Positions 19,459-61,745 of a DNA stretch of 64,000 bases are shown here, one piece after another (position 1 is the stretch's first letter; the number at the start of each line of letters is the position of its first letter). The DNA is from a virus (Duplodnaviria > Caudoviricetes): positions 13,635 through 77,634 of IMG/VR virus record IMGVR_UViG_2770939519_000001. One strand, given 5' to 3'. The notes under the pieces are model-generated. The model was not told where the DNA came from and did not search any database. It saw only the letters and a list, made by a program, of their open reading frames with translations. A program made the translations under genes and the position numbers.

Positions 19459-19482
19459 ACAACTGAATACACAACTGAATAC
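19459..19482 (+). promoter_or_regulatory. Tandem ACAACTGAATAC x2 (type copy of the recurrent phage motif)
   Basis: Perfect 12-bp tandem duplication; variants precede many late genes. Confidence 0.7.
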
Positions 19483-44162: not shown

Positions 44163-45796
44163 GCGTCCCCACAGTCGATTTCGACGCGGTCTATGAACGA
44201 TTCCGCGCCAACGCCGCCGATGAGCGGTTCCGGCGGCTCGCACCGCCGCTGGTGCGAATCTGGGACGGCAACTGGCAGCTGCGCGGCCGGGTCACCCGCA
44301 TCGTGTCCGCGGAGATCAACGAGGTCAACAACGACACCGGCATGGCCACGATCGAACTGCCGCTGGACTATTGGATCAGCGATTGGGTGGTCAACCTCGA
44401 GAAGCGGACGTCGAATATCCACCTGACCGTGGACAAGGACAATATTCGCTGGTCGGGTCGGATGGATTCGTTCACCGTCCGCAAGAACGCCGACGGTTCG
44501 GGTGTGCTGGCGCTGTCGTTCAAACACGACTACGAAGAACTCAAACACATCATCTGCTATCCGAATCCGTTCCTGCCGCCGGAGGTGCAGTTCCCGAAGT
44601 TGTGGTTCTGCTTCGGCCCGGCCAAGTGGGCGCTGAAGCTGACAGCCCACTTGAACATCATGCGGCTCAACGGCAAGTTCTGGGACCTCAGCCCCGACCC
44701 CATGGATCCCGCCTACTGGCCCTCCGACGGCCGCTCCAGCTGGTCGATGGTGGTCAAGCCCGATCCGATCGGAATCGACAATTCCCTTCCCGCGCTGGTG
44801 ATCTCGCGCATGAAGTCGCTGCACGACGCCAGTAAGAAGATCGTCGCCGACGCCCAGTTGACCTGGACCTTCCGCCGATTCCTCCCCGGCGACCCCGAAC
44901 CGTGGCCCGGCGCGAACCTGCGCTACGGATGTCTGGTCATCGACCTCGAGGACCGCTCCGGATTCACCAAGGGCACCAGCTTCTTCGGCGATCTGTTCGG
45001 CGGCCTGGTCCGCGCGTTCGTCAACCTCGGCTCCGACGGCCTGAAAGAGGGCATCGACATCATCGACGACCCCTCGATACCGGCCGAATACCGCGACCCC
45101 GACTTCAAAGGCACACTGCCGGAAGCACCCTGGGTGATCTACCGCGACGGCCCGCACACCGGCATCCAGACCAGCGAGTTCACCGTCAAACCCGCCACCG
45201 ACGTCGGCGTCATCGCGGGCGGCCACTCACCGGCGGGCGTGAACGAGCTGATCGGCGCGGCCATCCAGACCGTCGGCGACCTCATCGCGGCCGCGGTCTT
45301 CGTCCCGCCGATCGGCGGCGCGCTGGACCGGATCCTGGCCCCGCTCTACACCGATGTGCTGTTCAGCTTCGGCAAGTGGGGATTTCCCGACCGCAAGGCG
45401 AAACTCGGCTGGTCGCACTATCACGAGCATTTCCAGGAGGGCGCGGACAAGGCCTACAGCCTCGGCTGGCTGCTGGCGATGCGCGCCGGGCAGTGGGCGA
45501 CCCGGGAGACGACCAGTCATGAAGTGGTGGTCGCCGATGGTGCGCCGTACCATATCGGTGGCCGGGGATTCGGACATTTCTACCTCGGCGACCGCGTCGG
45601 CTCCACCGTGCGCGGTATGGCCCCGGGCCGCGTATTCGTCGACCGCGTCACCCAGGTGTCGCTGGCATGGAACCGCGAGCAGGCGCCCGGCTGGAAGATC
45701 ACCGTCGGCCAACGCGAAGACCAGGACCCCGTGATCAAGGCATGGGAGCAACTGCGCGAAATCCTCAGCCTGATACAGGATCTCGGCGTGCTGTGA
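44159..45796 (+). CDS. Minor tail (baseplate hub) protein
   Basis: LVRIWDGNW...RWSGRM...FYLGDRV; ATGA overlap. Confidence 0.85.
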   Translation: MSVPTVDFDAVYERFRANAADERFRRLAPPLVRIWDGNWQLRGRVTRIVSAEINEVNNDTGMATIELPLDYWISDWVVNLEKRTSNIHLTVDKDNIRWSGRMDSFTVRKNADGSGVLALSFKHDYEELKHIICYPNPFLPPEVQFPKLWFCFGPAKWALKLTAHLNIMRLNGKFWDLSPDPMDPAYWPSDGRSSWSMVVKPDPIGIDNSLPALVISRMKSLHDASKKIVADAQLTWTFRRFLPGDPEPWPGANLRYGCLVIDLEDRSGFTKGTSFFGDLFGGLVRAFVNLGSDGLKEGIDIIDDPSIPAEYRDPDFKGTLPEAPWVIYRDGPHTGIQTSEFTVKPATDVGVIAGGHSPAGVNELIGAAIQTVGDLIAAAVFVPPIGGALDRILAPLYTDVLFSFGKWGFPDRKAKLGWSHYHEHFQEGADKAYSLGWLLAMRAGQWATRETTSHEVVVADGAPYHIGGRGFGHFYLGDRVGSTVRGMAPGRVFVDRVTQVSLAWNREQAPGWKITVGQREDQDPVIKAWEQLREILSLIQDLGVL

Positions 45797-45826: not shown

Positions 45827-46273
45827 ATGTTGAAGACCATCGAGGACACCGATTTCGACGACCCCGAAGACCACTTCGCGGCCGCCTTGCAGAACGTCCC
45901 GGGACTAGGCCCCGGCGGTGTGGCGATCCCGCTGGCCTGGGCGCAGATCATCTCCAAACACCTGGTCGAATGCGGATATGTGTTCGCGCCCTGGCTGCGA
46001 CGGCTGGCCGACGCGGACGGCAGGATCGACGTGAAGAATCTGCCCGAGCAGACCAAGAAGCTGCAGCGTCCGGCGCGCGGCCCGAACCACGCGTGGAATC
46101 CCGCGGTGCGCTGGGTGCCCATGGACACCCCCGATCCGGAACCGGTCGTGCTGCCCGACGTCAACACCCTCACCGACCAGGAACGCGGTGCGCTGCTGGA
46201 GATGTTCCGCGCCCGCGGCGACCTGCCCGAGCCGGTCCTCGACGACGACATCGCCCGTGTGATCGAGGGCTGA
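45827..46273 (+). CDS. Minor tail protein, DUF2744-like
   Basis: DPEDHF...HLVECG...RGPNHAWNPAVRWV. Confidence 0.75.
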   Translation: MLKTIEDTDFDDPEDHFAAALQNVPGLGPGGVAIPLAWAQIISKHLVECGYVFAPWLRRLADADGRIDVKNLPEQTKKLQRPARGPNHAWNPAVRWVPMDTPDPEPVVLPDVNTLTDQERGALLEMFRARGDLPEPVLDDDIARVIEG

Positions 46274-46413
46274 GCCTGTCCCGACACCGAGGGAAACATC
46301 TACCACCCGCCCGAACGGCAGGTGAGAATCGGGAGACAACCGGCCGCGATCTCCCCGCGGCCGCAGCTGTCTCGCCGTCGCTGCTTCCCGCACAGGTTCG
46401 TTGGAGTTCCCCG

Positions 46414-47820
46414 TTGATTCGATGCATGCCCCTGAAACAAGGCACCTACACGATCGCCTCCGGGTTCGGAATCCGCGGTGGCAGCATGCATTACGGCCTG
46501 GACTTCGCCGCCGCCGACGGCACTCCGATCTACGCGGCGCAGGCCGGAACCGTTGCCTATATCGGGCCGGCGCAGGGCTTCGCGCAATGGATCGTCCTCG
46601 ATCATCCGGCGCAGGCGGGCGGCGGCACCACGGTGTACGGGCACATGTGGGACGCGCACGCCACCGGATTGAAACTGGGTGATTGGGTCGCGGCCGGACA
46701 GCTGATCGCCTACGTCGGCAACAATGGCGAATCCAGTGGCCCGCATTGCCATTTCGAGGTACACCCGAGCGTGTGGCGGCCGGGCTCGCAGATCGACCCG
46801 GCGCTGTGGCTGGCCGGTGCGACCGAACCGGGCGCTCCGGTGCCGCCGCAGCCGCAGACCTACTTCGGTATCGATATCGCCTCGTATCAGGCCGGGCTGG
46901 ATATGGCCGCGGTCAAGGCCGAGGGCTTCGCCTACGTGCTGGCCAAGGCCACCGAGGGCGACAGCTACGTCAACCCGTTCTACTGCGAGCAGCGCGACGG
47001 TGCGCGCGCGGCCGGAATGCTGTTCGGCGCGTATCACTATGTGCGCGAGGGCAGTTCGGCCGCAGCGCAGGCCGAGCACTACGCCGCGGCCGAGCCGGAC
47101 CGGGCGATACCGGTCATGCTCGATGTCGAAATCGGCTCCGGTGGTGTGGAACTCGTCCGTGAATTGGTCGCCGAGTTCACCGCCCGCGGCTACCGCGTCA
47201 ATCTGATCTACCTGCCCAACTGGTACTGGTCCGGCAATCTGGGCAGCCCCGACCTCACCGGCCTGCCGCCGCTGATGTCGTCGAACTACGTCGACGGCTC
47301 CGGCTACGCCGCCACCCTCTACCCCGGCGACACCCATCGCGGCTGGAACGGCTACGGCGGCAATTCCGTCGCGGTGTTCCAGTTCTCCGACAGGGGCCTG
47401 GCCGCCGGACACGCACTCGACGTCAACGCCTTTCGCGGCACACCCGCCGAACTGGCCGCCCTGTTCGACACCCAGGAGAACGACTTGCCCTACACACCCG
47501 AAGATCTCAAAGCGATCGTCTTCGACTGCCTGAAGACCTACGTCGGCCCGATGGGCAGCGATATCAAAGACATTCGCTTCGAGCTGACCGGCGGCCGCGA
47601 CTCCGGCCAGTACCCGGGCCATCCGTCGCTCTACGACATCCGCGCGGGCAAACCCGGCGCGGAAGTGTTCCACGGCACGGTCACCCGCTTCATCCAGGAA
47701 CTCGACGCCAAGGTCGAAACCCTGTCCCGCGAGAACGCGGTGCTCGCCGAGAGGCTCACCGAACTGCTCGCGCGCCCGATCGCGGCCCCCACCACCGATA
47801 CGGAGAATTCCCATGGCTGA
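46414..47820 (+). CDS. Endolysin: M23 peptidase + GH25 muramidase + C-terminal wall-binding domain
   Basis: HYGLDF...SSGPHCHFEV; GIDIASYQ...KATEG...GAYHY. Confidence 0.92.
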   Translation: MIRCMPLKQGTYTIASGFGIRGGSMHYGLDFAAADGTPIYAAQAGTVAYIGPAQGFAQWIVLDHPAQAGGGTTVYGHMWDAHATGLKLGDWVAAGQLIAYVGNNGESSGPHCHFEVHPSVWRPGSQIDPALWLAGATEPGAPVPPQPQTYFGIDIASYQAGLDMAAVKAEGFAYVLAKATEGDSYVNPFYCEQRDGARAAGMLFGAYHYVREGSSAAAQAEHYAAAEPDRAIPVMLDVEIGSGGVELVRELVAEFTARGYRVNLIYLPNWYWSGNLGSPDLTGLPPLMSSNYVDGSGYAATLYPGDTHRGWNGYGGNSVAVFQFSDRGLAAGHALDVNAFRGTPAELAALFDTQENDLPYTPEDLKAIVFDCLKTYVGPMGSDIKDIRFELTGGRDSGQYPGHPSLYDIRAGKPGAEVFHGTVTRFIQELDAKVETLSRENAVLAERLTELLARPIAAPTTDTENSHG

Positions 47821-48025
47821 TGTTTTCACCAAGGCCGGTCTCGTCGACGCCGGTAAGCGGGCGCTCAAGACCTTCGCCCAGACGCTCGCGGCCTCGCTGG
47901 CCGTATTCACCGGTGTGCTGGACACCAACTGGACCGCCAGCCTCGGCGCGGCCGGTCTCGCGGCCCTGATCTCGCTGCTGCACAACATCGCCGGTGACGC
48001 GGCCGCCTCGGGTCAGGTGCGGTAA
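47813..48025 (+). CDS. Holin (r1t-like)
   Basis: RALKTFAQ, two TM segments, overlaps the lysin. Confidence 0.85.
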   Translation: MADVFTKAGLVDAGKRALKTFAQTLAASLAVFTGVLDTNWTASLGAAGLAALISLLHNIAGDAAASGQVR

Positions 48026-48031
48026 GCCACC

Positions 48032-48433
48032 GTGCCCGACACCCATCCGTGGGTGGTGTGGGCCTCGGTCGTCGTCGCGGTCATCACGATCGCGGCGGCG
48101 GCCGTGCCGAAGGTCCGTGAACTCCTCCGCCCGCTTCTCGACTTCATCTACGGATTCCGTGTGAGCCGCATCAAGCGTCAGGCCCGAATCGAGGCCGCCG
48201 CGGCGGTCCTCAACGATCAGCGCGTCGAACTGCTCTCAGTCCAATTGTCCGGCGTCGCCGCGCAGTTGGACGGCGTGCTGCGCCAGTCGAGAGAGGATGC
48301 CATTCGCTATCAAACCGAAATTGCCTCCCTGCGTACCGAATTGGCGGATACCAAACGTGAGCTCGCCGCCAGTCGAGTCGAAATCGCGGCGCTGCGAGCC
48401 GAATTGGCAGAGTATCGAGGAGCGCAGGCGTGA
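48032..48433 (+). CDS. Membrane protein with coiled coil (lysis accessory)
   Basis: N-terminal TM, C-terminal heptads; after the holin. Confidence 0.65.
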   Translation: MPDTHPWVVWASVVVAVITIAAAAVPKVRELLRPLLDFIYGFRVSRIKRQARIEAAAAVLNDQRVELLSVQLSGVAAQLDGVLRQSREDAIRYQTEIASLRTELADTKRELAASRVEIAALRAELAEYRGAQA

Positions 48434-49275
48434 CATTCCCGGTAGGCAATCCGCCCGACGGCGCGTTCCAGGTCGGGTCGAAGTTCGGTAAGGACCTCAA
48501 CAAGGACACCGCGGTCGCGATCATGACCGGGGGCATCAAGCAGAAGTTCACCGATGTGCGCGGTACCTACAAAGATCAGGTCGAGGATCCGATCAAGGAC
48601 AAGCCGTCCCTGTCGCAGGTGCCGGTCGGATCGCCGATGTGGCAATCGTTTCGGGCGAACGAGGACACCACCTTTCCCCGCACCCAGCTGACCTTCGGCG
48701 CCGCCTCGTCGACCTCCTCCGGCGGCGGCAGCAACAACAGCCACACCCATTCGCTGCGTGTCACGCCGGACTATCAGCCCGCCGGACACGGCGCGAGTTA
48801 CCTCGAACTGGGATACATCCAGGCCCAACGCGACCGAACCTACACCGAGGTCGGATTCATCACCGGCGGATCGGTGACCGCCTTCGGAATCGGCGGCTTC
48901 TACATCGGGGTGTATTCGGTCGACACCGCGACCGGCAACCTGACGCTGCTCAATCCCGTCTCCGCGGCGGTGGATATGAAGGGCAGTTTCGGTGCGACCA
49001 ATACCGAATACCGGTTCAACCTGGGCACCGCGCTCACCGCCAAGCAGGGCGATGTGTTCGCGATCGGACTGCTCCAGGTCACCGCCCTCGGGCAGACCTG
49101 CTCGTCGCTGCTGTGCATCACGATGAACAACATCACTCCGCCGCAGATCAGCTCGGCGTTCCCGCGCAAGAACTACTGCTACGCCGGTGGTTTCTCCGCG
49201 ATTCCCGCGGCGATCGGCGAATCCGCGCTCAACTACAACGAATCGAACAAGGTCCCCTTCTACGTACTGCGATAG
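48430..49275 (+). CDS. Minor tail protein
   Basis: HTHSL motif, beta-rich; overlap coupling. Confidence 0.65.
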   Translation: MTFPVGNPPDGAFQVGSKFGKDLNKDTAVAIMTGGIKQKFTDVRGTYKDQVEDPIKDKPSLSQVPVGSPMWQSFRANEDTTFPRTQLTFGAASSTSSGGGSNNSHTHSLRVTPDYQPAGHGASYLELGYIQAQRDRTYTEVGFITGGSVTAFGIGGFYIGVYSVDTATGNLTLLNPVSAAVDMKGSFGATNTEYRFNLGTALTAKQGDVFAIGLLQVTALGQTCSSLLCITMNNITPPQISSAFPRKNYCYAGGFSAIPAAIGESALNYNESNKVPFYVLR

Positions 49276-49278
49276 GTT

Positions 49279-49659
49279 ATGGCCGACAAGCTCAAGCACA
49301 TCAAGAATTTCTTCGTCGCCAATGTCCTCGACGGCTTCGGATCCCGCCGCTATATCGGGCATCACGATCTGGATCCGGCGCGCAAGTACATCCACAACTA
49401 TGCGGTGCCGGGACTGTATGCGGCGATCATGACCGACGATCCCGACTACGACCCGCAGGGCGCGCCGACCGAGGCCGCCACGAATGCGGCGACACTGGCG
49501 TGGGTCAGCGACCTGCAGCGCGATATGCAGTCGCTCGGACGCATCGACCCGCATGGGGACCTGTATCTGATGATGTGCACGCCGGGCGCTACCGGCTGTT
49601 TCATGGACGACCTGTATGCGGCGTTGGATGCCGACGACCCGGGCTGGCGGTCGCGATGA
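49279..49659 (+). CDS. Hypothetical phage protein
   Basis: Operonic ORF. Confidence 0.65.
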   Translation: MADKLKHIKNFFVANVLDGFGSRRYIGHHDLDPARKYIHNYAVPGLYAAIMTDDPDYDPQGAPTEAATNAATLAWVSDLQRDMQSLGRIDPHGDLYLMMCTPGATGCFMDDLYAALDADDPGWRSR

Positions 49660-49979
49660 CCGCCCCCGGCCAGATCGGACTGCCGCCGCCGGTCGGCACG
49701 ATGAACCTGAAGAAGTTCTCCGGCCTGGAATGGCAATTCCGTTGGTATGCAGGCGAATTCCCCGCCGGAGCGCAGCTGTATCTGCTTGTCGGCGACGACG
49801 ACACCCCGCAGCGCTGGGATTTCACCATCTCCGGTGATATGGCCACCATCGCCATCAAACCCGAAGTGACCGCGGCCATTCCGGACCGGACCGCCTTCTA
49901 CCTGATGTTCAAGGCCAATGCCGCGGCGCTGCCTGTCCAGTTGGAAATGGGCAAGGTCAAACAGTGGAAGGCCAAATGA
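49656..49979 (+). CDS. Tail-associated protein (L5 gp31/LtfC-like)
   Basis: WDFTISGDMATI...IPDRTAFYL; ATGA overlaps. Confidence 0.6.
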   Translation: MTAPGQIGLPPPVGTMNLKKFSGLEWQFRWYAGEFPAGAQLYLLVGDDDTPQRWDFTISGDMATIAIKPEVTAAIPDRTAFYLMFKANAAALPVQLEMGKVKQWKAK

Positions 49980-51754
49980 GCGCGCCCCTGATCATCGGCC
50001 TGCCGCCCGCCACGCCCGCCCTCGGCCCGGGCACGATTCCCGCTGGGGGAGTGCTGGTTCCGGTCGCCGGACGCGACGGCCACGGCATCAGCTTCACCGG
50101 TGTCAAGAACACCTACGCCGATCTGCCCACCGGGCTCGGGCCCGGTGACAACGGGGTCTGCTACCTCGTCCTCGAGGACAACCTCGCCTACTTCTGGAAC
50201 GGCGCGGCCTGGCCGGCCAAAGGCAAAGGCGCGCCGATCAAGGGCGACCAGGGCGATCCGGGCCGGGGCATCGACTCCATCACCGCCACGCCTGCGGGCC
50301 TGCGCTTCGCCATGACCACCGGCGTGACCCCGGTCGACGTCGCGGTGCCCGCCCTGACCAACGCCACCCAGGCCGCCGCCACCGCGACCAGCAAGGCCGA
50401 CGAGGCCCTGACCTCGGCCGGACTCGCCACCAACGCGGCCGCCGCCGCCGATACATCGGCCCGCAATGCCGCCAATTCCGCTACCACCGCGGGCACTGCT
50501 GCGAGTACCGCGAACAGTGCGCGAGACCAGGCCACTACCGCGGCGACCAACGCTGGTTCCGCCGCGGACAAGGCAGCCGGATCGGCTTCGGCCGCCGCGA
50601 GCTCGGCCACGACCGCCGACGGTGCGCGCGCCGCGGCCCGCACGGCCGCCGATGACGCTGTCGCTTCGGCGAATTCGGCCAGTGCCGCCCGCGCCGACGC
50701 CCAAACGGCCCGCGACACCGCCAAGACTTCCGCCGACTCGGCCACCGATGCCAAAACCAATGCCGCGGCGTCGGCGGCCGAGGCCAAACACTGGGCCGAG
50801 CACGCCGCCGAAACCGTCTCCAGCGGGATTCCCAACGCGGACAAGACGATCAAGGGCGGCATCATGCTGCCCGGCGGCACCCCCGGCGAGTTGGGCGGCA
50901 CCTTCGAACATCCCGTGGTCGTCGGCTGGTCCGGTAAGGCCGACGTGGCCAGTGTCGACGCCAAATACACCCGGCCCGGCAACGGCATCCCGGCCACGGA
51001 TCTGGCTGCGGCTGTGCAGACCTCGCTCGGGCACGCGGACTCGGCCTATCAGAAACCCGCTGCAGGAATCCCCAAGGGCGACTTGGACTCTGCGGTGCAG
51101 ACCTCCCTCACCCGCGCCGATACCGCCGTGCAGGTCGATGGCACCGGCAAGATTTCGGCCGCGATCATGCCCGCCATCGCGGTTACGGAATTCCTCGGTG
51201 CGGTGTCCGGTGAGTCCGCGATGCTCGCTCTGAGCGGGCAGCGGGGAGACTGGTGCACTCGCACCGACAAGGGCACCGACTGGCAGCTCATCGCCGAACC
51301 CGCAGGGCAGCTCGCGAATTGGCGCGAACGCACCTACCCGGCCTCTCCGGTGTCCTCGGTCAACGGCCGCACCGGCGCGGTCACCACGGCCTCCGTCGAT
51401 ATCACCGACGCCACCAGCGTCGGGCGTGCGGTCCTCATCGCAGCCACCGCCGCCGCGGCGCGCTCGACCCTTGGTGCGGGTACTTCCAGCCTCACTCTCG
51501 GCACTATCGCGGGGACGGCCGCCGCCGGGGACGATGCGCGGCTGTCCGATCAACGAGTGCCTGTCGACGGCAGTGTCACCAATGTCAAGATCGCCGGTGG
51601 GGCCGCGATCGCATTGTCGAAGCTGGCGACCGGATATGTTGCCGGACAAGATACTTCGGGTCCCCGAACGCTCACCCTCTGGGTCGGTACCGAGGCGCAA
51701 TTCAACGCGATCGCCACCAAGGACGCCAACACCCTCTACCTGCGGACTGCCTGA
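49976..51754 (+). CDS. Tail fibre protein
   Basis: Ala-rich SAxxA repeats, PVSSVNGRTGAV, C-terminal DANTLY. Confidence 0.85.
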   Translation: MSAPLIIGLPPATPALGPGTIPAGGVLVPVAGRDGHGISFTGVKNTYADLPTGLGPGDNGVCYLVLEDNLAYFWNGAAWPAKGKGAPIKGDQGDPGRGIDSITATPAGLRFAMTTGVTPVDVAVPALTNATQAAATATSKADEALTSAGLATNAAAAADTSARNAANSATTAGTAASTANSARDQATTAATNAGSAADKAAGSASAAASSATTADGARAAARTAADDAVASANSASAARADAQTARDTAKTSADSATDAKTNAAASAAEAKHWAEHAAETVSSGIPNADKTIKGGIMLPGGTPGELGGTFEHPVVVGWSGKADVASVDAKYTRPGNGIPATDLAAAVQTSLGHADSAYQKPAAGIPKGDLDSAVQTSLTRADTAVQVDGTGKISAAIMPAIAVTEFLGAVSGESAMLALSGQRGDWCTRTDKGTDWQLIAEPAGQLANWRERTYPASPVSSVNGRTGAVTTASVDITDATSVGRAVLIAATAAAARSTLGAGTSSLTLGTIAGTAAAGDDARLSDQRVPVDGSVTNVKIAGGAAIALSKLATGYVAGQDTSGPRTLTLWVGTEAQFNAIATKDANTLYLRTA

Positions 51755-52296
51755 TGGGAGCCAGTCTCGGCACGGTCGGTATCACGAAAGTCGCATTGGG
51801 CGGCAACGATATTCAGAAGATCAGCCTTGGTGCGATCGACGTGTGGAGCGCGGTCGTTTTCATTCCCGTCGGGGCGACGGTCGGCACCGCGGCGACCTCC
51901 GGATCGCCGTTCGCGCTGATGCAGGGCTGGAAGGCCGATCCGAAATATCCGGGGTCGGCCGTGGCGTCCAACAAGCTGGTTGTCCCGGCCGCAGGGAAGG
52001 GCGTCACCATCGCGGCCTCGGTCATCTGGTCGGCGACTTCGAGTTACAAGCAGGACGTCACCATGCGCCTGACCCTCGACGACAAGCCCGTCGGCGCGGC
52101 GGGTCGAAAGGTCTCTGCGCCCGCGTGGGGGAGCGTCACCGCCGAGGTCGTCGCCAGCGGTATCGACGTCAAAACGGGCAGCGTCGTCGGCGTCGAGGCG
52201 CTCGGTGAGTCCATGTTCGGCAACGGTCCCACCGCGCAGGTCAGCGCCAGCTCCTACCTGCGCGTGTACCTGCCCACCCCGCTCGTCAGAACCTAG
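51754..52296 (+). CDS. Minor tail / fibre-associated protein
   Basis: KVALGG...KISLG...VWS N-terminus shared with the next gene. Confidence 0.7.
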   Translation: MGASLGTVGITKVALGGNDIQKISLGAIDVWSAVVFIPVGATVGTAATSGSPFALMQGWKADPKYPGSAVASNKLVVPAAGKGVTIAASVIWSATSSYKQDVTMRLTLDDKPVGAAGRKVSAPAWGSVTAEVVASGIDVKTGSVVGVEALGESMFGNGPTAQVSASSYLRVYLPTPLVRT

Positions 52297-52323
52297 ACCT
52301 CCATCTCGCATTGGAATCGTTCC

Positions 52324-53025
52324 ATGGCAATCAGCCTCGCGGCCACCGGCATCGCCAAAGCCTCCCTCGGCGCTGCCGCCATCCAGAAGATCAGTCTCGG
52401 CACGACGCTGCTGTGGAGCGCCGGGACCAATGTGAACGACAACTTCAATCGCGCCAGCCTGGGTGGCAACTGGACCACTGCGGGATACAACGACGAACCC
52501 GCCGTGCCGACACTGAATTCCAATAGATTCCACGCCGGGGAACCGGCCGGATTCCTCTCCGGCTACGAGATGGCCGCCGGCTACACCGCCACGGCCGCAC
52601 TCACCGACAACCATGCCGTGCGCGTCACCATCGCCACCGCGCTCACGGCCGAACAGGCCGGACTGATCGTGCGCGCCAACGCCGGCCTGAAGGACATGGT
52701 CATCGCCAAGATCACCACCAGCGGTGACAAGTCCGGCATCTGGACCATGGACGCCGGTGATCAGACGCGGCAGAAAAGCGCCGCCACAACCAGTTTCAAA
52801 CCCGGAGATATCGCCGAATTCCGGGTATCGGGCAATATCTACCAACTCGTCCGCAACCCGGACTCCGCCGCCACCATAGTCGCGACGTGGACCGACACCG
52901 ATGCGGACGTCAAGCCCGGACCGACCCGACGCTACGGCGGACTGTGGGCGTCCTCGTCCAAGGAATTCTCCGGCACCGCCACCTATTCCGCGGACCTGGA
53001 CGACTTTGCCTTCAGAGACCTTTAG
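52324..53025 (+). CDS. Minor tail protein with beta-sandwich (lectin-like) domain
   Basis: DNFNRASLGGNW...LDDFAF. Confidence 0.7.
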   Translation: MAISLAATGIAKASLGAAAIQKISLGTTLLWSAGTNVNDNFNRASLGGNWTTAGYNDEPAVPTLNSNRFHAGEPAGFLSGYEMAAGYTATAALTDNHAVRVTIATALTAEQAGLIVRANAGLKDMVIAKITTSGDKSGIWTMDAGDQTRQKSAATTSFKPGDIAEFRVSGNIYQLVRNPDSAATIVATWTDTDADVKPGPTRRYGGLWASSSKEFSGTATYSADLDDFAFRDL

Positions 53026-53060
53026 TGCCAACACCGTTCGAACAACCCAAGGAGCCAATC

Positions 53061-53636
53061 GTGTTGAAAACTGTCGTGCTGATGGGATCCGCTACGGATG
53101 CCCAGTTCTGGATTCCAGGATTCGTCAAGATCGACGATGTCCGTCAAATCGGTGATTTCGCCGCCGAATACGACGTCGTCTACGACGAGAGCAAGGTGCA
53201 CGAGGTATCGATGGTCTTCGTCAGCAACTCCGGCGAGAACCCACCGCAGACGACGGATCCGTTCTATCCGCTCCCGAAAGCCCGCATATTCGGAGACCGG
53301 TGGGTATACACCTACTACCAGTACTCGCCCATTCCATCGAAGTGGGGCGGCGAGAAGACGATGGCATTCGTCGGCCGCGCCTATGGGATGCAGTTCTACG
53401 TGCCGGGACTGGTCGCCATCGAAAAGATGCGCGCGACCGGCAAGGGCGACGGCGAGATGGTCGAGATCTATGTGCGTGCATCCGGTGACAAGAAGGCCGA
53501 GATTCACAAGGTGAGCGTGACGTACACCGCGCCGGACAAGGAAATTCCCGCGGGCGCAATCGATCTCGGCCTCATCCACCCTCTGGGGTTGTGGGGATAC
53601 GTCTATGCCACCGACGAAATCCTTCCGGCTGCTTGA
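53061..53636 (+). CDS. Cargo protein, two IPGF-type repeat domains (paralog 1)
   Basis: AGGAG RBS; FWIPGFVKIDDVRQ / FYVPGLVAIEKMRA. Confidence 0.8.
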   Translation: MLKTVVLMGSATDAQFWIPGFVKIDDVRQIGDFAAEYDVVYDESKVHEVSMVFVSNSGENPPQTTDPFYPLPKARIFGDRWVYTYYQYSPIPSKWGGEKTMAFVGRAYGMQFYVPGLVAIEKMRATGKGDGEMVEIYVRASGDKKAEIHKVSVTYTAPDKEIPAGAIDLGLIHPLGLWGYVYATDEILPAA

Positions 53637-53668
53637 TTCGCAGCACAATTGAATACGGAGAAGTCGCC

Positions 53669-54409
53669 TTGACCGATAAGAACAGTGACGGCAATCAGGC
53701 CTATCGCTTTTATCACGGCATGCTGCCCGACGGCACCGAGTACGACAACTACCGGCTCTACCCGCCGCTGGACTACCAGGGGCACAAGCTGTGGACCATC
53801 AGCATCGTCTATCGCGAACACGATCCTCGCACCCAGAACGGCAATTTCGTCTACGTGCAGGTGTGCCCGATCACCGACAGCGGGACCGACTTCAACGTCC
53901 ATCTGCCCGGTAGCCATGTGGCCGAATCCGCGCAATACGACCCGCCGCAGCACGGTGACTACCACCAGTACTACGTGCGAGCGCTGGAGGTCCTCGGCCA
54001 CTACAAAAGCTTTCCCGGCGCCACCGCCGTCCTGATGCAGAAGACCAGCACCGGGCGGCATCAAGGAATCGGCTGGGCCTGCAAATTCGTGCCGCCGATC
54101 CAGACCAAGCGCGCCGCCTCCCCCGACGATATCGAGATGACCGAATACGCAATCGTCGAGGCAGTACAAAAGGGCCCCAACGGATTTCCCTCCGTCCAGG
54201 TGAGCACTGCCACCAAGGACGGCGAATACGTCCGCAAGACCGTGACCGAGCCGAACCGTAACGGATATCTGCTGCCCGGCACGACGGTCGTGCAGGACTT
54301 CCCGTGGCCGACCGATCCCGCCGACCGGCAACGCATCGACGCGCTGCTTCAGGACGCGATCACCTACGGGATGGGCTACAGCGCCCTGATCTACGAATTC
54401 AACATCTGA
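53669..54409 (+). CDS. Cargo hypothetical protein (Tyr-rich)
   Basis: TTG start after motif and GGAG; 246 aa. Confidence 0.75.
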   Translation: MTDKNSDGNQAYRFYHGMLPDGTEYDNYRLYPPLDYQGHKLWTISIVYREHDPRTQNGNFVYVQVCPITDSGTDFNVHLPGSHVAESAQYDPPQHGDYHQYYVRALEVLGHYKSFPGATAVLMQKTSTGRHQGIGWACKFVPPIQTKRAASPDDIEMTEYAIVEAVQKGPNGFPSVQVSTATKDGEYVRKTVTEPNRNGYLLPGTTVVQDFPWPTDPADRQRIDALLQDAITYGMGYSALIYEFNI

Positions 54410-54423
54410 CAAAGGAGATTCCC

Positions 54424-54633
54424 ATGAGCAACCAGGACAAGATCAACGCCATCGCCTCCACCATCGGCCAGGTGCGCGACCTGGTCCTCAAGATTCACGC
54501 CGAGATCCAGAACATGAAGAGGAACCCCCCGGCCGAGAACCTGGACTTCTCGCGTCTGGATTCCATCCTGGAGAACCTGAAGGCGCATACCGAGGCCACC
54601 GATGCCGAACTGCCGGATCTGCCTGCCGCGTAA
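54424..54633 (+). CDS. 69-aa coiled-coil protein ending ELPDLPAA
   Basis: AAGGAG RBS; heptad pattern. Confidence 0.75.
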   Translation: MSNQDKINAIASTIGQVRDLVLKIHAEIQNMKRNPPAENLDFSRLDSILENLKAHTEATDAELPDLPAA

Positions 54634-54682
54634 CCGAATACATCTCTCTCCGATTCGGAACATTCAGCAAGGAGCGAACAGA

Positions 54683-55432
54683 ATGACAAATCCGACCTAC
54701 ACGGTGTACGGGCGGCCGACCGGCGTCGCGCTCGACGCGGCCGGGAATATCTACGCCACCGGCAATCTATACGACCAGGTGTGGAAGTTCACCCCGCAGG
54801 GCGCGGAGACGAAACTGCCCGTTGCCGGGGCTCGCAAACCCAGTGCTGTGGCGGTGGACGCGGCGGGCAATGTGTACATCGCCAACAGTCAGCGAGGGTC
54901 GGAGGAAATCATTCGACTTCGCCCGAACGGCGCGCAGCAGACCATCAGAGTCCCCGAACTCAGAAAGCCCACTCAGCTGCGGTTCGATTCGGCGGGCAAT
55001 CTTTACGTCGTGGACGGCTACGCGGGCCGCATCGTCCGGATCGCGCCGAACGGCGTCCAGGAGACCGTGCCCATCCAACTCGATTATCCGTACGCCCTCC
55101 ACATCGATCGGGCGGGCGCGATCACGGTGACGATGATGGAACCGAGTCAGGTCGTCCGCTTCGAAACCGACGGCACGCGAACGGTCCTGCCGTTCACCAA
55201 CCTCGATCAGCCGACCGGCCTGGATATCGACTCCGACGGCAATGTGTACGTCGCCCTGGCCGCGGGAGCGCTCCCCGGCGATCCGCGGGTCCTGAAGCTC
55301 ACCCCAAGTGGCGAACAATCGGTCCTGCCGGTCGAGCTGAGCAACCTCGTCACCCCGGGGAACCTCGTCGTCCGTGACGGTGTCCTCTACATCGCCGACG
55401 GTCTCAGCGCCATCCAGACCCTGAAGCTCTGA
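54683..55432 (+). CDS. NHL-repeat beta-propeller (PknD-sensor-like), no signal peptide
   Basis: Repeated P.G(V/L)A(V/L)D..GN.YV. Confidence 0.9.
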   Translation: MTNPTYTVYGRPTGVALDAAGNIYATGNLYDQVWKFTPQGAETKLPVAGARKPSAVAVDAAGNVYIANSQRGSEEIIRLRPNGAQQTIRVPELRKPTQLRFDSAGNLYVVDGYAGRIVRIAPNGVQETVPIQLDYPYALHIDRAGAITVTMMEPSQVVRFETDGTRTVLPFTNLDQPTGLDIDSDGNVYVALAAGALPGDPRVLKLTPSGEQSVLPVELSNLVTPGNLVVRDGVLYIADGLSAIQTLKL

Positions 55433-55474
55433 AACGGCCGTAAGACTCTGCTACACAACTTAATAGGAGATTCC

Positions 55475-56056
55475 ATGGCAATCGGAATCGTGACCGTCAC
55501 CGGCTTCCCCGCCGCCCTGACCTATCACATCCCCGGCTTCGTCAAGATCGACGAAATGCGCCAGATCGGCGACAACGGCCTGTGCGAGTTCGTGATCGTC
55601 TACGACGACACCAAACTCGACGAAGTCTCCGAGGTCCTACTCTCCGGCGACTACTACCCGATGCGCCCGAACGCCCTCGACATCCGCTTGGGCACAGTTC
55701 ATCTCGCCAATGGCTCCCGCTTCTACGTCTACTGGTATGCCCGCCCGGTCCCCCAACCCGACAGCGACGGCATCAGCGTCATGGTCGTCGCCGACACCAT
55801 GGACCGGCTCGACTTCTACGTTCCGGGCTTCCTGCGCGTCGATCACTTCCGTCAGCTCGCGGACGAACGGCTGGAGCTGCATATCGTCTATGACCCGAAG
55901 CGCACCAACGAGATTCACCACCTGAAATTCCGCTCGGACTACAACCCGGACCCGACCCCGTCTCCGATGACGGTCGGCATCGGCAACCGCAAGGGCGGCG
56001 AGTCGTTCTACGTGCGGTACGAGGACACCATCGTCACGACCGCGAAGGCGGGCTGA
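55475..56056 (+). CDS. Cargo protein, two IPGF-type repeat domains (paralog 2)
   Basis: YHIPGFVKIDEMRQ / FYVPGFLRVDHFRQ. Confidence 0.8.
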   Translation: MAIGIVTVTGFPAALTYHIPGFVKIDEMRQIGDNGLCEFVIVYDDTKLDEVSEVLLSGDYYPMRPNALDIRLGTVHLANGSRFYVYWYARPVPQPDSDGISVMVVADTMDRLDFYVPGFLRVDHFRQLADERLELHIVYDPKRTNEIHHLKFRSDYNPDPTPSPMTVGIGNRKGGESFYVRYEDTIVTTAKAG

Positions 56057-56061
56057 TCCCA

Positions 56062-56640
56062 ATGGCCATCAAGAACATCGTCATGTCCTCCGGCCTGGCT
56101 CCGGAATTCTGGATTCCCGGTTTCGTCGAAATCGAAGAGATGCGCCAGACCGACAATCGAGGCTGGTACGACTTCTCCATCCTCTACGACGACACCAAAC
56201 TCCACGGGATCCACCGAGTGGAGTTCGAGATCTCACTACCCGACCCGAGCGACACGTCGACCGGCCTCACCCCCCTCGGAAAGGTCCACGACTTCACCGG
56301 CACGTCCTTCTACGTGTACTACCGCACCGAGCCGATCCCGCCGCAGTGGACGGGAACGCACACCCGGGTCGTGACCGCCAAACTCGGCTGGACACCGATC
56401 GACATCTATATCCCCGGTTTCGTTCGCGTCGACAAGATGCGCCAGATCGACGAATGGGGCACCGTCGAGCTCTACATCCGCATGGACCTGAGCAAGAAGG
56501 ACCAGATCCACCACCTCCAGGTTTCGGCGAAGAGTGATGAGCCGGACCTGACTGCCGGTACTGTCGAGCTGGGGATCGTCCATGAGCCCGGACGGTACCG
56601 GTACGCGACCTATACGAGCGAAATCCTGTCTGCCACATAG
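56062..56640 (+). CDS. Cargo protein, two IPGF-type repeat domains (paralog 3)
   Basis: FWIPGFVEIEEMRQ / IYIPGFVRVDKMRQ. Confidence 0.8.
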   Translation: MAIKNIVMSSGLAPEFWIPGFVEIEEMRQTDNRGWYDFSILYDDTKLHGIHRVEFEISLPDPSDTSTGLTPLGKVHDFTGTSFYVYYRTEPIPPQWTGTHTRVVTAKLGWTPIDIYIPGFVRVDKMRQIDEWGTVELYIRMDLSKKDQIHHLQVSAKSDEPDLTAGTVELGIVHEPGRYRYATYTSEILSAT

Positions 56641-56650
56641 TGGCCGCGAT

Positions 56651-56686
56651 ATCTCCGCCGGCCCGTTCGCGGGCCGGCGGAGATTT
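56651..56686 (+). terminator. Rho-independent terminator closing the late/cargo operon
   Basis: Perfect 15-bp stem ATCTCCGCCGGCCCG-TTCG-CGGGCCGGCGGAGAT, then TT. Confidence 0.85.
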
Positions 56687-57035
56687 GCGGTCAGCGCCCC
56701 TTATCCGCAGGCGTGAACCATGAAGACGACAACGATGCCGATCATGGCGAGCTAAAATGCCGCTTTCGGAGGCTTCCTCAGCCATCCGTCACGCTTCCCC
56801 TCCACGTACCTGTCCCATCGTGCGTGTCCGGCGGGCCCCGACAACCAGCGGTGAGCCCTTGCGGCGTGCGCGGCAGCGCAGATGGTTTCGCGCTCGGTTG
56901 CAGTATCCGCAGTTCTCTTTCAGAGCAATGATCAGAACCTGTGGATGACCGGAAAGGAGTACCTTCCGGGATGATCTTCGAATCCTGGATCTGATCAACC
57001 CTGGCGCGCCAACGCCGGGTGGAAGGTATGTCCCG

Positions 57036-57495
57036 AATGCTCGAAGTAATCGACGGTGGTGCCGGCTCCAACAACGACGCCGAGCCGGGTTCGCCGATTG
57101 ACGAGATTGTGCGCGAGGGTGTGCGGGCGATGCTGGCGGCGGCGTTGCAGGCCGAAGTAGCCGCGTATATCGCTCGATTCGCTGATCGGCTCGACGAGAA
57201 CGGGCATCGACTGGTGGTCCGTAACGGCTTTTACGCCGCCCGCGCCGTGACCACCTCCGCGGGTGCGGTCGAGGTCCGTGCACCACGGGTCAACGACAAG
57301 CGTGTCGATCCGGAAAACGGTGAGCATCAACGTTTCTCCTCAACGATCCTGCCGGCGATGGCGTTCAAACTGCTCGAGTCCGCTCAGAACCGGTGGCGGG
57401 CGGTCAGTGCGCCGCACCTGGTCGCTCTCGTCCGCGCGGGAGCACATTTCGATCGAGGCATTCTCGTCGAGCGTGAGCAGGGCACCGCAGCATGA
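57036..57495 (+). pseudogene. IS256 transposase, N-terminus fused directly to C-terminus (catalytic core deleted)
   Basis: IDEIVREG..RMLAAAL.AEV, RNG, VRAPRVND, FSSTILP joined to MAFKLLESAQNRWRAV.APHLVALVRAGA. Confidence 0.85.
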
Positions 57496-57980
57496 CCGAC
57501 CGCCCGCTGTTATTCCTCGATGTCGACGGGCCGCTTCTCCCGTTCGGTGAGAACCCGCAACGCGAACCGCGTGATGTCGTGTCGCATTCGCACCTGTCGC
57601 GGCTCAGCCCCGAACTCGGGCGCCGACTGGCGGCACTACCGTGCGAACTGGTTTGGGCCACCACATGGGAAGACGACGCGAATGCCGAGATCGCGCCGCG
57701 CCTCGGGCTACCCCGGCTGCCGGTCGTGCATCGGCCCGATTCCTCCGTCGAGCACGAACACGAAGACCAGTGGTTCGGGCTGTGCTGGAAGACCCGGACA
57801 CTGGTCGACTGGGCGGCCGGACGCCCATTCGCCTGGGTCGACGACGAGATCACCGACGCCGACCGCAATTGGGTCTCCGCACAGCATCCCGGTCGCGCGT
57901 TCCTCCGCCACGTCGAGTCGTTCCGTGGACTCAGCGACGAGGACATCGCAGCCCTTGATCAATGGCTGCGAGCAACCTGA
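57492..57980 (+). CDS. HAD-superfamily protein (Swiss-Army-Knife RNA-repair-like)
   Basis: FLDVDGPL, WATTW, WVDDE. Confidence 0.85.
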   Translation: MTDRPLLFLDVDGPLLPFGENPQREPRDVVSHSHLSRLSPELGRRLAALPCELVWATTWEDDANAEIAPRLGLPRLPVVHRPDSSVEHEHEDQWFGLCWKTRTLVDWAAGRPFAWVDDEITDADRNWVSAQHPGRAFLRHVESFRGLSDEDIAALDQWLRAT

Positions 57981-58616: not shown

Positions 58617-59399
58617 CTATGCCGTGGGGATCAGCCGGTGCACAGTGCCCACCCAGTCCAGCACGGTGACGTTCCCGGAGTCGTCGACGCGGATGTCGAT
58701 GGGGCGCAGGACGCTGAACTCCTCGAATGGCGGCTCTGTGACAGTGCCGGTGGGAGAGAGTATTTCGACGTTGTGTCTGATGGTGGTGTTGCCGAAGTTG
58801 GTGAGGTAGGTGTTGCCCTGGGCGTCGACGTCGATGCCGGTTGGTGCGTCGACCCTGTGGAATTGCAGGGTTGTCTGTACACCCTGGGGGGTCAGGCGGA
58901 CGACGCTGCCCGACGAGGACGAGCCCTCGGCCTTGTTGGTGACGGTGATGTTGCCGGTCTTGTCCACTCGGATGCCATGCGGTACCAGCAGATTGGTGAA
59001 GGGGAGGTCTACCTGGGTGCCGTCGGGGGAGAGTCGGACCACGCGGTTGTTGCTGCCGTCGGTGACGTAGACATTTCCTGCCTGGTCGACGTCGACGTCG
59101 TTGGGGAATCGTCCCAGACCGGTGAACGGGAGCACGGTGACGACACCGTCGGTGCCGAGCTTCAGTACGCGGCTGCCGCCGTAGTCGACCACGTAGGCAT
59201 TGCCGATCTGGTCGACTCGGATACCGGCGGGCGACCCCTGGAAAGTCATCGGGAGTGCGGCCTGCGTCCCGTCCAGCGAGAGCTTCTCCACCTGGCGCGG
59301 ACGCTGGTTGGACACATAGGTGTTGCCTGCGGAATCGACCTCGAGGCCGATCGGCCCTCCCAGATTTTTGAATGGCAGCTTGATCTGTTTGTAGGCCAT
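58617..59399 (-). CDS. Second NHL-repeat beta-propeller
   Basis: P.G..VD..GN.YV repeats; GAAAGG RBS preceded by AAAACTGAATAG. Confidence 0.88.
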   Translation of the reverse strand: MAYKQIKLPFKNLGGPIGLEVDSAGNTYVSNQRPRQVEKLSLDGTQAALPMTFQGSPAGIRVDQIGNAYVVDYGGSRVLKLGTDGVVTVLPFTGLGRFPNDVDVDQAGNVYVTDGSNNRVVRLSPDGTQVDLPFTNLLVPHGIRVDKTGNITVTNKAEGSSSSGSVVRLTPQGVQTTLQFHRVDAPTGIDVDAQGNTYLTNFGNTTIRHNVEILSPTGTVTEPPFEEFSVLRPIDIRVDDSGNVTVLDWVGTVHRLIPTA

Positions 59400-60150
59400 G
59401 ACGAACCTTTCGCTATTCAGTTTTACCGGCCTGACGAGGCCCACCCTCTATCGTACTGAAAGGCTTTGTGGCACAAGGTGTTGGCGATATCGGCGAAAAT
59501 GTGATCGGGGTGAGCGTTTACGTCTACGAGCGGATTTCGCTTTGACCGGTTGACGTTTCGTGCTCGACGCGGGCTCGGGCCTGCGGTGCAACCGCCGCCA
59601 CCACCATCCGCCCGCACCAATCACGGCTGCGGCAATCGCGGACGGCGTCGCTCGAATCGACCAGCAGTTTCGCCTTGACCGTCGGTCCCACCTCAACGGT
59701 TCCCCCGTTGATGGGTGAGGTGTTCGGTAGCAGGGCCGCTATGCGGGATCTGAGTTCCTGCCCGTTGCCCAGTTCGAGTCCGATTCGTACGGTCTTGTCC
59801 ATGTCCACCGACTTCGGGGCATGCCAGGTCGCGGCCGTCCGGACCAATTCGTGGGTTCGGGCGTCGAGGATCGCCAATTGGCGCGCGGTGTCATTCGAGA
59901 TGGTGGGGCCGGTGGCCGCTGCCGGCCCCCGTCTTGGTCATCACCTACGCCCCACGTCGATGGTCCATGCCGGTCGCTGGTCACGTTACACCCAGGGCAG
60001 AGGGGTTGAGTTGTGAATAGTTGTGGACGACAAGAGTATTCGCTGACCGATCACCGCTGTGTCCGGTCGCGGACAGCCCAGGTGCGTGTCGAGTAGAATT
60101 GCCCCACCCTCCTCGAGTTATCTCCCATTTCTCTTGGTTGGGTTGGTTGG

Positions 60151-60183: not shown

Positions 60184-61548
60184 TTATGCCGCGGGGAGGG
60201 CGGGCAGGGTGGTGGTGTCGATGCCGAGGAAGGCGTCGAGTTTGTTGAGGGCGTCCTGGGCGACGGCTTGGCCTATGTGGGTGTAGATCATGGTTGTGGC
60301 CACGTCGGTGTGGCCGAGGATCATCTGGATGGTTTTCGGGTCGACTCCAGCTTCGTGGAGCAGGGTCGCGGTGGTGTGGCGGGTTTCGTGGACGAGTAGG
60401 TCTGCGGGAAGTCCGGCCAGTTCGGCGCATTCCTTGTACAGCACCCAGCCGTAACGTGGTGGCAGGGGGCGGATTTCGTCGGTGTAGCGGGGGTCGATGA
60501 AAACAAGATTGTGTGGATTGTCCGGGCGGCCAAGGGTTTTCTGCGCCTGGAGCATCAGGAATGCGTTCAGTTGCGGGGTAGCGGGGAGCATACGCATACC
60601 GCCCTGTTTCGGACGGGTCAGAAACAAACTGTCCACCAAATGACGATGCTCGTAATCCAGGGGGAAGTCGAAATAGCCCTCGGGGCAGGCGAATCCGCGC
60701 GCCTTGCCGCACGGCCAGGTTTCGTCCGTGTGCTGGGGGCCGCACCCGTGCTTTTTGGAATGCGATTGGAGTTGCCATTCGAAATCCAGCCAGCCGCCGG
60801 TGCCGTCGGCGCGATCGGACAGCTGTACCCGATCCCACGTCAGGCCGAGCACCTCGCCCAGCCGGACGCCGGTGAACAGCAGGACCGCCAGCGCGACGGT
60901 GTAGGGATGCCCGTGCTGATACGTGGTGCGCAGCAACAGCTTCGCGTTGTCGGCGGCGATGGCGCGGCGTTTGGCGTCGCTGGGATCCGGGGGCGTGGCC
61001 TGGTCGACGACATTGCGGTCGACCTCGTCGCGGTCATAGGCGTCCTGAAAGGCGGTGTGCATCACCCGATGTGCGAGCCGGGCGGTCGAGATGCCGTTCC
61101 AGCGGCCCTTGGATGTGGTGCGCACGCGCACGACGATCGCGTCGTACATCGCGTTGATCTCGTCGACCTTCAGCTCGCGTTTGCGTCGCTCGCCGAGCAG
61201 GGGCCTGATGTGCGCGTTGACGACCGACTCGTAGCCGACGAAGGTCTTGGGGGTGCAGCGGCGTTTGGCGATGTTCTCGAGCCAGTAGTCCAGCCAGCCG
61301 TTCACCGTGGACTTGTCGACCGCGGTCGGCAGGCCCCGGCGGGCGCGTTCGACCTTCTGGCGCAACTTCTCCAGCGCCTCGTCGTAGTCCTTGGCGTAGG
61401 CCTTCAGCCGAACCGGGCCGCCCGCTGCGGGATTGGGATTGCGCTGCGAGGCCGCGTAGACCCCGCGCTTGGCGTCCCAGCGGATCGACACCGTGCCCTT
61501 CGGCGCGCGCGTCTTCGTGGTGGTTCTGCTCACCGGGCGTTTCCTCAC
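60184..61548 (-). CDS. int: Tyrosine integrase
   Basis: FTGVRLGE (R), VHETRHT (HxxR), LGH...TTMIY (H, Y); ends LPALPAA. Confidence 0.95.
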   Translation of the reverse strand: MRKRPVSRTTTKTRAPKGTVSIRWDAKRGVYAASQRNPNPAAGGPVRLKAYAKDYDEALEKLRQKVERARRGLPTAVDKSTVNGWLDYWLENIAKRRCTPKTFVGYESVVNAHIRPLLGERRKRELKVDEINAMYDAIVVRVRTTSKGRWNGISTARLAHRVMHTAFQDAYDRDEVDRNVVDQATPPDPSDAKRRAIAADNAKLLLRTTYQHGHPYTVALAVLLFTGVRLGEVLGLTWDRVQLSDRADGTGGWLDFEWQLQSHSKKHGCGPQHTDETWPCGKARGFACPEGYFDFPLDYEHRHLVDSLFLTRPKQGGMRMLPATPQLNAFLMLQAQKTLGRPDNPHNLVFIDPRYTDEIRPLPPRYGWVLYKECAELAGLPADLLVHETRHTTATLLHEAGVDPKTIQMILGHTDVATTMIYTHIGQAVAQDALNKLDAFLGIDTTTLPALPAA

Positions 61549-61608
61549 AACGTTTTCGGAACGAGAGCCGGGCCCGTACGGACCGTCGGAAACTGGTTGC
61601 AAACCGCT

Positions 61609-61646
61609 ACTGGTCACAAGCCACTGGTCACAATAACTGGTCACAT
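61609..61646. repeat. Three ACTGGTCACA direct repeats (integrase arm-type sites)
   Basis: Copies at 61609, 61623 and 61636, between the int start and the att core. Confidence 0.75.
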
Positions 61647-61745
61647 CAGGATGCATGCAACTGCTTCACATCCCATAAAATCACAGCCATGAGCTGGCTA
61701 TGCAACAAGTGACACCCGTGGGATGTGGGCTCTCAGCCCGGCGTC

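Follow-up and report, generated by a model that had tools for sequence, protein, structure and literature searches.

The question raised by this locus is what a run of six small genes is doing between the last tail gene and the transcription terminator of a prophage late operon, and whether, as an earlier note made from the letters of this DNA alone had proposed, they amount to an undescribed multi-gene system. The window, by which we mean the whole 64,000-nucleotide stretch analysed (positions 13,635 to 77,634 of IMG/VR record IMGVR_UViG_2770939519_000001), is a Nocardia siphovirus prophage, as its terminase, portal, capsid, tape measure, Dit, Tal, lysin, holin, minor-tail and integrase genes attest; its G+C content is high, the genome carrying it is 8.4 Mb, and every named relative of the proteins studied comes from Nocardia. 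The block proves to be a set of accessory genes at the distal end of the late operon, assembled around a new protein family specific to Nocardia phages.

All six genes are co-oriented at 53061-56640, on the plus strand with the tail genes. Paralog A (53061-53636; 191 aa, two beta domains of about 95 aa; GTG start with AAGGAG 7 nt upstream) is followed by Y (53669-54409; a tyrosine-rich 246-aa orphan with a TTG start and GGAG upstream), CC (54424-54633; 69 aa, acidic, helical by eye, of no known family), NHL1 (54683-55432; 249 aa, a stand-alone six-bladed NHL beta-propeller of the PknD-sensor type), paralog B (55475-56056; 193 aa, two domains) and, only 5 nt past B, paralog C (56062-56640; 192 aa, two domains), the protein used for modelling. 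The tight spacing described in the earlier note was confirmed, since A starts 35 nt past the last minor-tail gene and the gaps in the order A-Y-CC-NHL1-B-C are 32, 14, 49, 42 and 5 nt. Its strong ribosome-binding sites (RBSs) were found as GGAG-type signals in five of the six genes, but the RBS of C is weak. Its perfect 15-bp terminator is likewise present: an intrinsic-terminator-type hairpin on the plus strand (56651-56684; folding energy -49.3 kcal/mol, z -7.5) closes the late operon with arms at 56651-56665 and 56670-56684 that are complementary at 15 of 15 positions around a 4-nt loop. None of the six proteins has a signal peptide or transmembrane (TM) segment (no 19-residue window reaches Kyte-Doolittle 1.6), as had been said of the paralogs. 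The G+C content at third codon positions (GC3) of Y, NHL1, B and C (0.80-0.88) lies within the range of the adjacent structural genes, and a promoter scan not tuned to actinobacteria found no sigma-70-like promoter near 53000. This anatomy, with membership of the late operon, we regard as highly probable, and the six genes do look co-transcribed with the tail genes, as expected of the co-expressed operon first proposed.

Halving A, B and C yields six copies of one all-beta domain of about 95 aa: all 15 pairs of halves align (BLASTP E-values from 9e-4 to 3e-20), each half scores 89-105 bits against the hidden Markov model (HMM) of the family domain, and the aligned consensus IPGFVxIDxMRQ ... 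YD ... EIH ... LG ... FYVYY matches the motif from which six diverged copies in three paralogs had originally been read. The N-terminal halves are closer to each other than to the C-terminal halves, so the internal duplication predates the split of the paralogs. Neither the paralogs nor Y and CC match anything in Pfam, PHROG (E <= 0.01) or PADLOC, a sequence profile search of the PDB returned nothing below E 0.4, and no paper on the tandem-domain family was found in the literature. Searching 1.84 billion representative proteins with a profile of the six domains gave 21 matches, of which 20 are two-domain proteins of about 173-209 aa and one is 96 aa long; all the named ones are hypothetical proteins of Nocardia. 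A word-indexed search of 5.8 billion proteins with C as query returned the near-identical cluster only. A 400-genome sample of the bacterial family (36 of them Nocardia) gave no match, and members were then detected by a full scan of the genus: among 267 Nocardia species genomes, the two-domain gene occurs in about 21 besides that of the window, and about 11 more have a single-domain relative of about 102 aa. The gene is single-copy in the other Nocardia genomes, and across the 267 three copies at one locus are confined to the window's genome. In a 26-row family alignment, no catalytic-type residues stand out as an invariant set, and a Pfam search of A, B, C, Y and CC detected neither a toxin domain nor an immunity family already known. 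A, B and C are thus members of an undescribed, rare, tandem all-beta family found only in Nocardia phages, and of the undescribed system once suggested it is this family that is new, while the six genes recur together in one sister prophage only.

The predicted fold of the family is equally without a close counterpart. An AlphaFold2 model of C built from the 26-row alignment is confident (predicted local distance difference test 91.1, predicted template-modelling score 0.83) and consists of two times seven beta strands with no helices; against the PDB, Foldseek returned only non-specific matches to Fab fragments (E > 0.06), and the best Z-scores from VIA-align were 3.9 among 48,161 chains and 2.8 among the Foldseek top 1000, so that the modelled fold has no clearly similar solved structure. 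In BFVD, the best Foldseek matches were DUF7352 proteins of about 90 aa from Gordonia phages (E 8e-3, probability 1.0) and other phages (overall E 8e-3 to 0.1, probability 0.9-1.0, template-modelling score 0.46-0.60 on the target, root-mean-square deviation (rmsd) 3.3-4.9 A), and the top three feature clusters in the ESM Atlas were also DUF7352, at a score of 0.81 that the tool itself rates as a lead only. Membership of DUF7352 was rejected at the sequence level: none of the 26 family members matches the PF24043 model (27-bit cut-off) at E <= 10, a PF24043 scan of the genome designated G000 found nothing in the window, and hhalign against 29 DUF7352 sequences gave probabilities of 0.4% with a 6-row profile and 1.9% with a 52-domain profile. 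In the predicted structures both families have an all-beta domain of about 90 aa with seven strands, but DUF7352 proteins are single-domain and occur among the early or replication genes of many phage groups, whereas the tandem family is two-domain, confined to Nocardia and encoded in late operons. The models therefore point to a likeness in fold with DUF7352, itself a family of unknown function that no paper we found mentions; the structure and profile comparisons that had been recommended for the single domain assign it to no known family beyond this likeness.

To place the three paralogs, we built a maximum-likelihood tree of 38 family members, in which A, B and C (28-38% identical to one another) occupy three separate places. 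B forms a clade with 100/100 support with the single-copy genes P0004, L058 and L059 of three other genomes (61-70% identity; L and a number denote loci of the comparison set), A groups with single-copy genes of other Nocardia prophages (nearest P0002, 90% identity), and C is alone on a long branch. The tree accordingly rejects a recent tandem duplication as the source of the three copies, and because the paralogs fall in separate clades, the block appears to have been assembled from old subfamilies, each working alone elsewhere. An obligate hetero-oligomer of A, B and C, one of the assemblies first envisaged, is not indicated by these sequences and is disfavoured because each subfamily occurs singly in other prophages.

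The block can be compared with that of a sister prophage (L068; GCA_001304815.1), which is colinear with window positions 46055-56683, from the lysin to the hairpin, at 92.6% nucleotide identity; colinearity stops at the hairpin (56683), and content differs beyond it. All six genes, including the orphans Y and CC, are under purifying selection, with ratios of nonsynonymous to synonymous divergence (dN/dS) of 0.03-0.27 at dS of 0.19-0.33 (A 0.15, Y 0.12, CC 0.03, B 0.27, C 0.07); CC is 98.6% identical in amino acid sequence, and the hairpin stem has a compensatory C>T / G>A pair. The six genes are therefore real and selected. Divergence between the two prophages peaks at the distal fibre genes, A, NHL1 and B (87-92% amino acid identity vs 95-99.6% upstream), as would be expected of parts involved in host recognition. 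The complete six-gene set, though, is present only in the window and this sister; elsewhere the family gene is found alone, sometimes with an NHL propeller. Co-conservation of the set, a check that the earlier note had called for, thus did not hold, and the block is a mosaic accessory set and not a conserved six-gene system.

Part of the block also shares a signal with the virion genes. The 11-nt motif ACAACTGAATA has 18 sites in the window vs 3.5 expected (<=2 mismatches), among them plus-strand sites at 19459, 19471, 26535, 29497, 30599, 33829, 34743, 43251, 45800, 53645 and 55455, with a perfect tandem pair at 19459/19471, and a minus-strand site at 59424. Upstream of the portal, scaffold-like, major capsid protein (MCP), tail-tube and Dit genes and others, copies lie 0-19 nt from the RBS or start. 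Within the block, the motif reported upstream of several genes precedes two, Y and B, where copies with one mismatch (53645-53655 and 55455-55465, plus strand) lie just 5′ of the RBSs and are kept in the sister prophage; it is not upstream of A, CC, NHL1 or C. The motif may be a repressor site resembling a stoperator, or an element acting in translation.

Among the genes interleaved with the paralogs, Y fits its description as a tyrosine-rich 246-aa orphan (7.7% tyrosine) without a detectable homolog outside the sister prophage: the 5.8 billion proteins contain only its own >=90% cluster, and nothing similar was found in the 267 Nocardia genomes, Pfam, PHROG, PADLOC, PDB sequences or the ESM Atlas. 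Checked as a hidden member of the tandem family, it did not match the domain HMM, and it is a real gene because its dN/dS is 0.12. No homolog of CC was found in about 25 related loci, to which the search for it was confined. NHL1 matches Pfam NHL (PF01436) at 53 bits (cut-off 20), with further matches to Vgb_lyase over residues 11-198 and to SGL, so that the propeller of the earlier note is borne out, but its start is ATG 54683, 3 nt later than had been implied. Six blades of NHL repeats fill the whole protein; its closest natural solved relative is the Mycobacterium tuberculosis PknD sensor domain 1RWI (phmmer E 1.5e-40), also a six-bladed NHL propeller, and designed six-blade 'Pizza' proteins match at E 1e-54 to 1e-60. 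Unlike PknD, NHL1 has no kinase match in Pfam, no TM segment and no signal peptide, and is encoded in a phage late operon. Identification as a PknD-type Ser/Thr kinase was rejected, as the 249 aa are all propeller with no kinase and no hydrophobic segment, and so was identification as a full PD-T4-6 defence protein in PADLOC, as the best match covers only positions 359-432 of the 452-position profile, within its NHL part. Chromosomal Nocardia proteins of about 600-750 aa have an NHL part 35-41% identical to NHL1. As for association with the family, Nocardia ninae has a propeller 56% identical to NHL1 directly 3′ of the family gene, genome G799 has a relative of the window's second propeller near it, and six genomes have propellers 41-47% identical, 6-15 kb from the single-domain gene; since many loci share one chromosomal site, this co-occurrence represents about three independent prophage lineages. 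The literature yielded nothing relevant on NHL proteins in actinophages.

To see where the family gene lies in other genomes, we surveyed about 25 Nocardia loci, with open reading frame (ORF) calls that used a GC3 filter and missed some genes. In about 23 of the 25, the family gene is co-oriented with, and no more than a few kb from, Dit, Tal, minor-tail or lysin genes, and in L057 and L059 no phage genes were found within 10 kb of it. The commonest order is lysin, holin, a TM protein of about 99 aa and the family member. In L009 the gene comes after the minor tails and before the lysin, and in L010, whose Tal is 59% identical to that of the window (only that of L052, at 65%, is closer among the compared loci), it has the lysis genes on one side and fibre-like genes on the other. 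In the complete prophage L058, a B-type gene separates the MCP gene and a neighbouring HNH gene from the genes for head closure, tail terminator and major tail, while in L062 the member stands just before an uncalled 4.2-kb stretch that is probably the tape measure. Gaps 5′ of the family genes are 5-64 nt, so short that they leave little space for separate promoters.

Taken together, these results lead us to favour, tentatively and at a probability of a little over one third (about 0.37), a reading in which the block encodes binding proteins without enzymatic activity that are produced late and move with the tail module, in association with the virion or its tail. The products would be made late, alongside the tail and lysis proteins, and would serve as binding or adaptor proteins, most likely as particle-associated accessory adhesins. 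NHL1 would be a unit that binds a ligand in the cell envelope, its closest natural relative being an extracellular sensor domain; A, B and C would act in parallel, differing in specificity or attachment site and not forming one obligate hetero-complex, and Y and CC would be lineage-specific add-ons. This reading is favoured by the embedding in late operons with very short upstream gaps, by the retention of the family in tail-plus-lysis clusters described below, by the pre-RBS motif common to Y, B and major virion genes, by the coincidence of the divergence peak with the distal fibre genes, by the derivation of the propeller from an extracellular sensor type, and by the family alignment, in which no invariant catalytic-type residue set is apparent. 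The virion appendage or lectin of the earlier note is accordingly one of the two leading readings. Lambda Tfa, Mu U and T4 gp38 exemplify proteins whose genes follow those of the fibres and that assist in tail-fibre assembly or serve as accessory adhesins, and A, B and C resemble them in size (about 190 aa), in directly following the distal fibre gene in the window and in sometimes occurring in several alternative copies; they differ in having no similarity to them in sequence or fold, and elsewhere the family gene mostly does not follow a fibre gene.

Several observations weigh against a virion-associated role. The family gene occupies at least five different late-operon positions, its distribution among the 267 Nocardia genomes is patchy, and patchiness together with shifting position fits a mobile accessory gene better than a fixed part of the virion. 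In one group of loci a divergent helix-turn-helix (HTH) gene separates the family gene from the lysis genes, and in several loci a large polymorphic-toxin-like protein and SUKH or Imm49 genes come after it. When the entire block and its genes A, B, C and NHL1 served as blastn and tblastn queries against 50,697 sequenced phage genomes, the one match was at E 0.3, and the family was found in none of them. A, B, C, Y and CC have no structural-protein match in PHROG or Pfam, and no N-terminal attachment domain typical of tail proteins was seen.

The same shifting position and patchiness are the strength of the main rival, an explanation almost as likely as the favoured one, in which the block is moron-like cargo of the late operon that acts outside the particle, in an intracellular role such as anti-defence, superinfection exclusion or host modulation; a free propeller of the PknD/NHL type could then be a decoy for host kinases that bear NHL domains. 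Morons, in Hendrix's concept, are extra genes at varying places in late operons, with a factor-independent terminator and a patchy distribution among related phages, and the block and its family resemble them in varying late-operon placement, patchiness and closure by a strong terminator of their own. The change in copy number from one to three, the missing structural-protein signature and the variable cargo that the block borders (an insertion-sequence fragment, a HAD gene, the second NHL propeller and the integrase) are also in keeping with cargo, as are the propellers' only PADLOC match, to the NHL part of the kinase-type defence protein PD-T4-6, and the sole fold look-alike, DUF7352, a small early-region phage protein. 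Unlike morons, however, the block has no promoter of its own that a scan unsuited to actinobacteria could find, with only 35 nt before A, and its composition is not deviant, the GC3 values given above falling within the range of its structural neighbours; there is also no match to a known defence or anti-defence family beyond the NHL repeats.

It is unlikely that the tandem-beta proteins are instead lysis accessories, which would aid release through the mycolate-containing envelope or regulate the lysin or holin. In at least 17 of the approximately 25 loci the family gene lies one or two genes from the lysin-holin cassette, typically fourth, after a TM protein of about 99-133 aa, and lipid-binding MCE beta-barrels (MlaD, Mce1, PqiB) account for 8 of the 50 best PDB alignments of domain 1. 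The block is nevertheless 5 kb from the lysis genes in the window and the sister prophage, L058 and L062 have the family gene amid head-tail or tail genes, and LysB-like esterases coexist with it in some loci. The MCE alignments, moreover, are weak (Z 2.9-3.7 over 57-73 residues, rmsd 4.1-5.5 A) and within noise at Z < 4, and none of the 26 family sequences matched an MCE model in a Pfam scan; neither these nor the weak Ig-like structural rows were taken as homology. The MCE domain is a seven-stranded beta-barrel, and a hexamer of six related domains would parallel Mce1A-F; the tandem family differs in having no HMM match to it and no TM anchor. Returning to the tail-associated reading, one elaboration of it is a long shot: the tandem domain might be a new fold defining an undescribed accessory module of the tails or tail-like particles of mycolata (Nocardia) phages, in which three two-domain subunits (A, B and C in the window, a single protein in most phages) would form a pseudo-hexameric ring that, with the PknD-sensor-like propeller, recognises or breaches the mycolate envelope as a counterpart of the hexameric MCE lipid-handling rings.

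Less probable still is a role as adaptor or chaperone of prophage polymorphic-toxin cassettes, of which the window would hold an orphaned array without its toxin. Paralog arrays are typical of such loci, and several loci do have a protein of 662-1219 aa after the family member, followed by SUKH-1, SUKH-4 or Imm49-type genes, but no such large protein follows the block or member in the window, L068, L007, L010, L058 or L011, four lysis genes separate the two in L009, and the window's own toxin locus is about 40 kb off and its toxin unrelated to the large-protein family. The least likely proposals are the stronger readings of the earlier note, in which the proteins would be cargo directed at eukaryotes or would build a lattice or inclusion as an obligate hetero-oligomer. 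They are in keeping with six co-expressed copies of one domain in aromatic, beta-rich proteins, but fare poorly against the solitary occurrence of each subfamily in other prophages, the restriction of the six-gene set to two prophages, and the lack of secretion signals and of similarity to known toxins, lectins or crystal proteins.

Being a mosaic, the block should not be put forward as a new system of several genes. If the tail-associated reading is true, the family would add to host recognition in the phages of one particular genus of pathogens with mycolate walls; few Nocardia phages are known, and their receptors are poorly understood. Independently of function, a confident model without a solved relative makes the family a good target for structure determination.

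The other genes of this siphovirus-type prophage include, in order, the large terminase (24804-26525), an SPP1-type portal (26546-28063), the MCP (30622-31656), a tape measure of 2524 aa (35665-43239), a Dit-like gene (43275-44162) and a Tal gene of the Sipho_Gp37 type (44159-45796). The lysis cassette (46270-48433) sits amid the tail genes and comprises an M23+GH25 endolysin ending at 47820, an r1t-type holin (47813-48025) and, after the holin, a 133-aa gene whose sole matches are to PHROGs of unknown function. Next, up to 53025, come five or six genes of minor-tail or fibre-like type, of which the last (52324-53025) matches PHROG 2804 (minor tail) and also virion PHROGs.

The region that separates the late operon from the integrase holds variable cargo. 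Just past the terminator, at 57019-57980, are a truncated fragment of an IS256/Mutator-type transposase (57019-57495) and a gene with a HAD_SAK_2 domain (57492-57980); both are absent from the sister prophage, which has NUDIX and other genes there instead. The tyrosine integrase (60184-61656) is on the strand opposite to the late genes. Near it lies the second NHL propeller of the window (58617-59444, minus strand), again stand-alone, which is 32% identical to NHL1 and is retained by the sister prophage; the ACAACTGAATA copy at 59424-59414 suggests that its true start is ATG 59399 and not GTG 59444.

The comparison loci also expose tail-plus-lysis clusters of Nocardia that look capsid-less, several of them apparently without packaging genes too (L069 and L070, at G928:C2:1160000-1199999; L071, L072, L004, L044-L047, L053, L060 and L061). 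Host genes flank them, with VanW at one end and GGDEF or acyl-CoA dehydrogenase at the other; the clusters retain a family member and contain an HTH regulator, a LysB-like cutinase and two NHL propellers. In genome G928 (L069 and L070), an example viewed in full, the order is HTH regulator, LysB-like cutinase, NHL propeller, tail tube, chaperone, tape measure, Dit, Tal and fibres, then amidase, holin, 99-aa protein, single-domain member, a 1219-aa protein with its SUKH-like neighbour, and the second NHL propeller. These clusters may be F-type tailocin-like elements or decayed prophages; a literature search found nothing relevant on Nocardia tailocins, and the clusters, with their toxin-like genes, would be of interest if they were tail-like bacteriocins. 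The large 662-1219-aa proteins (L069:7621-11280, minus strand; L009:12506-16006; L004:11407-14307; and a 662-aa ORF in L061) have N-terminal 400-900 aa in common (42% identity between two members), variable ends and no Pfam match, and with the SUKH-1, SUKH-4 or Imm49-type genes that follow them they look like polymorphic toxin cassettes placed immediately past the lysis genes and the family member. Finally, A (codons at 53619-53636) and CC (54616-54633) both terminate in ...LPAA and the integrase, as the earlier note had pointed out, in ...LPALPAA, an ending that could be a shared, putative C-terminal degradation-tag-like signal.

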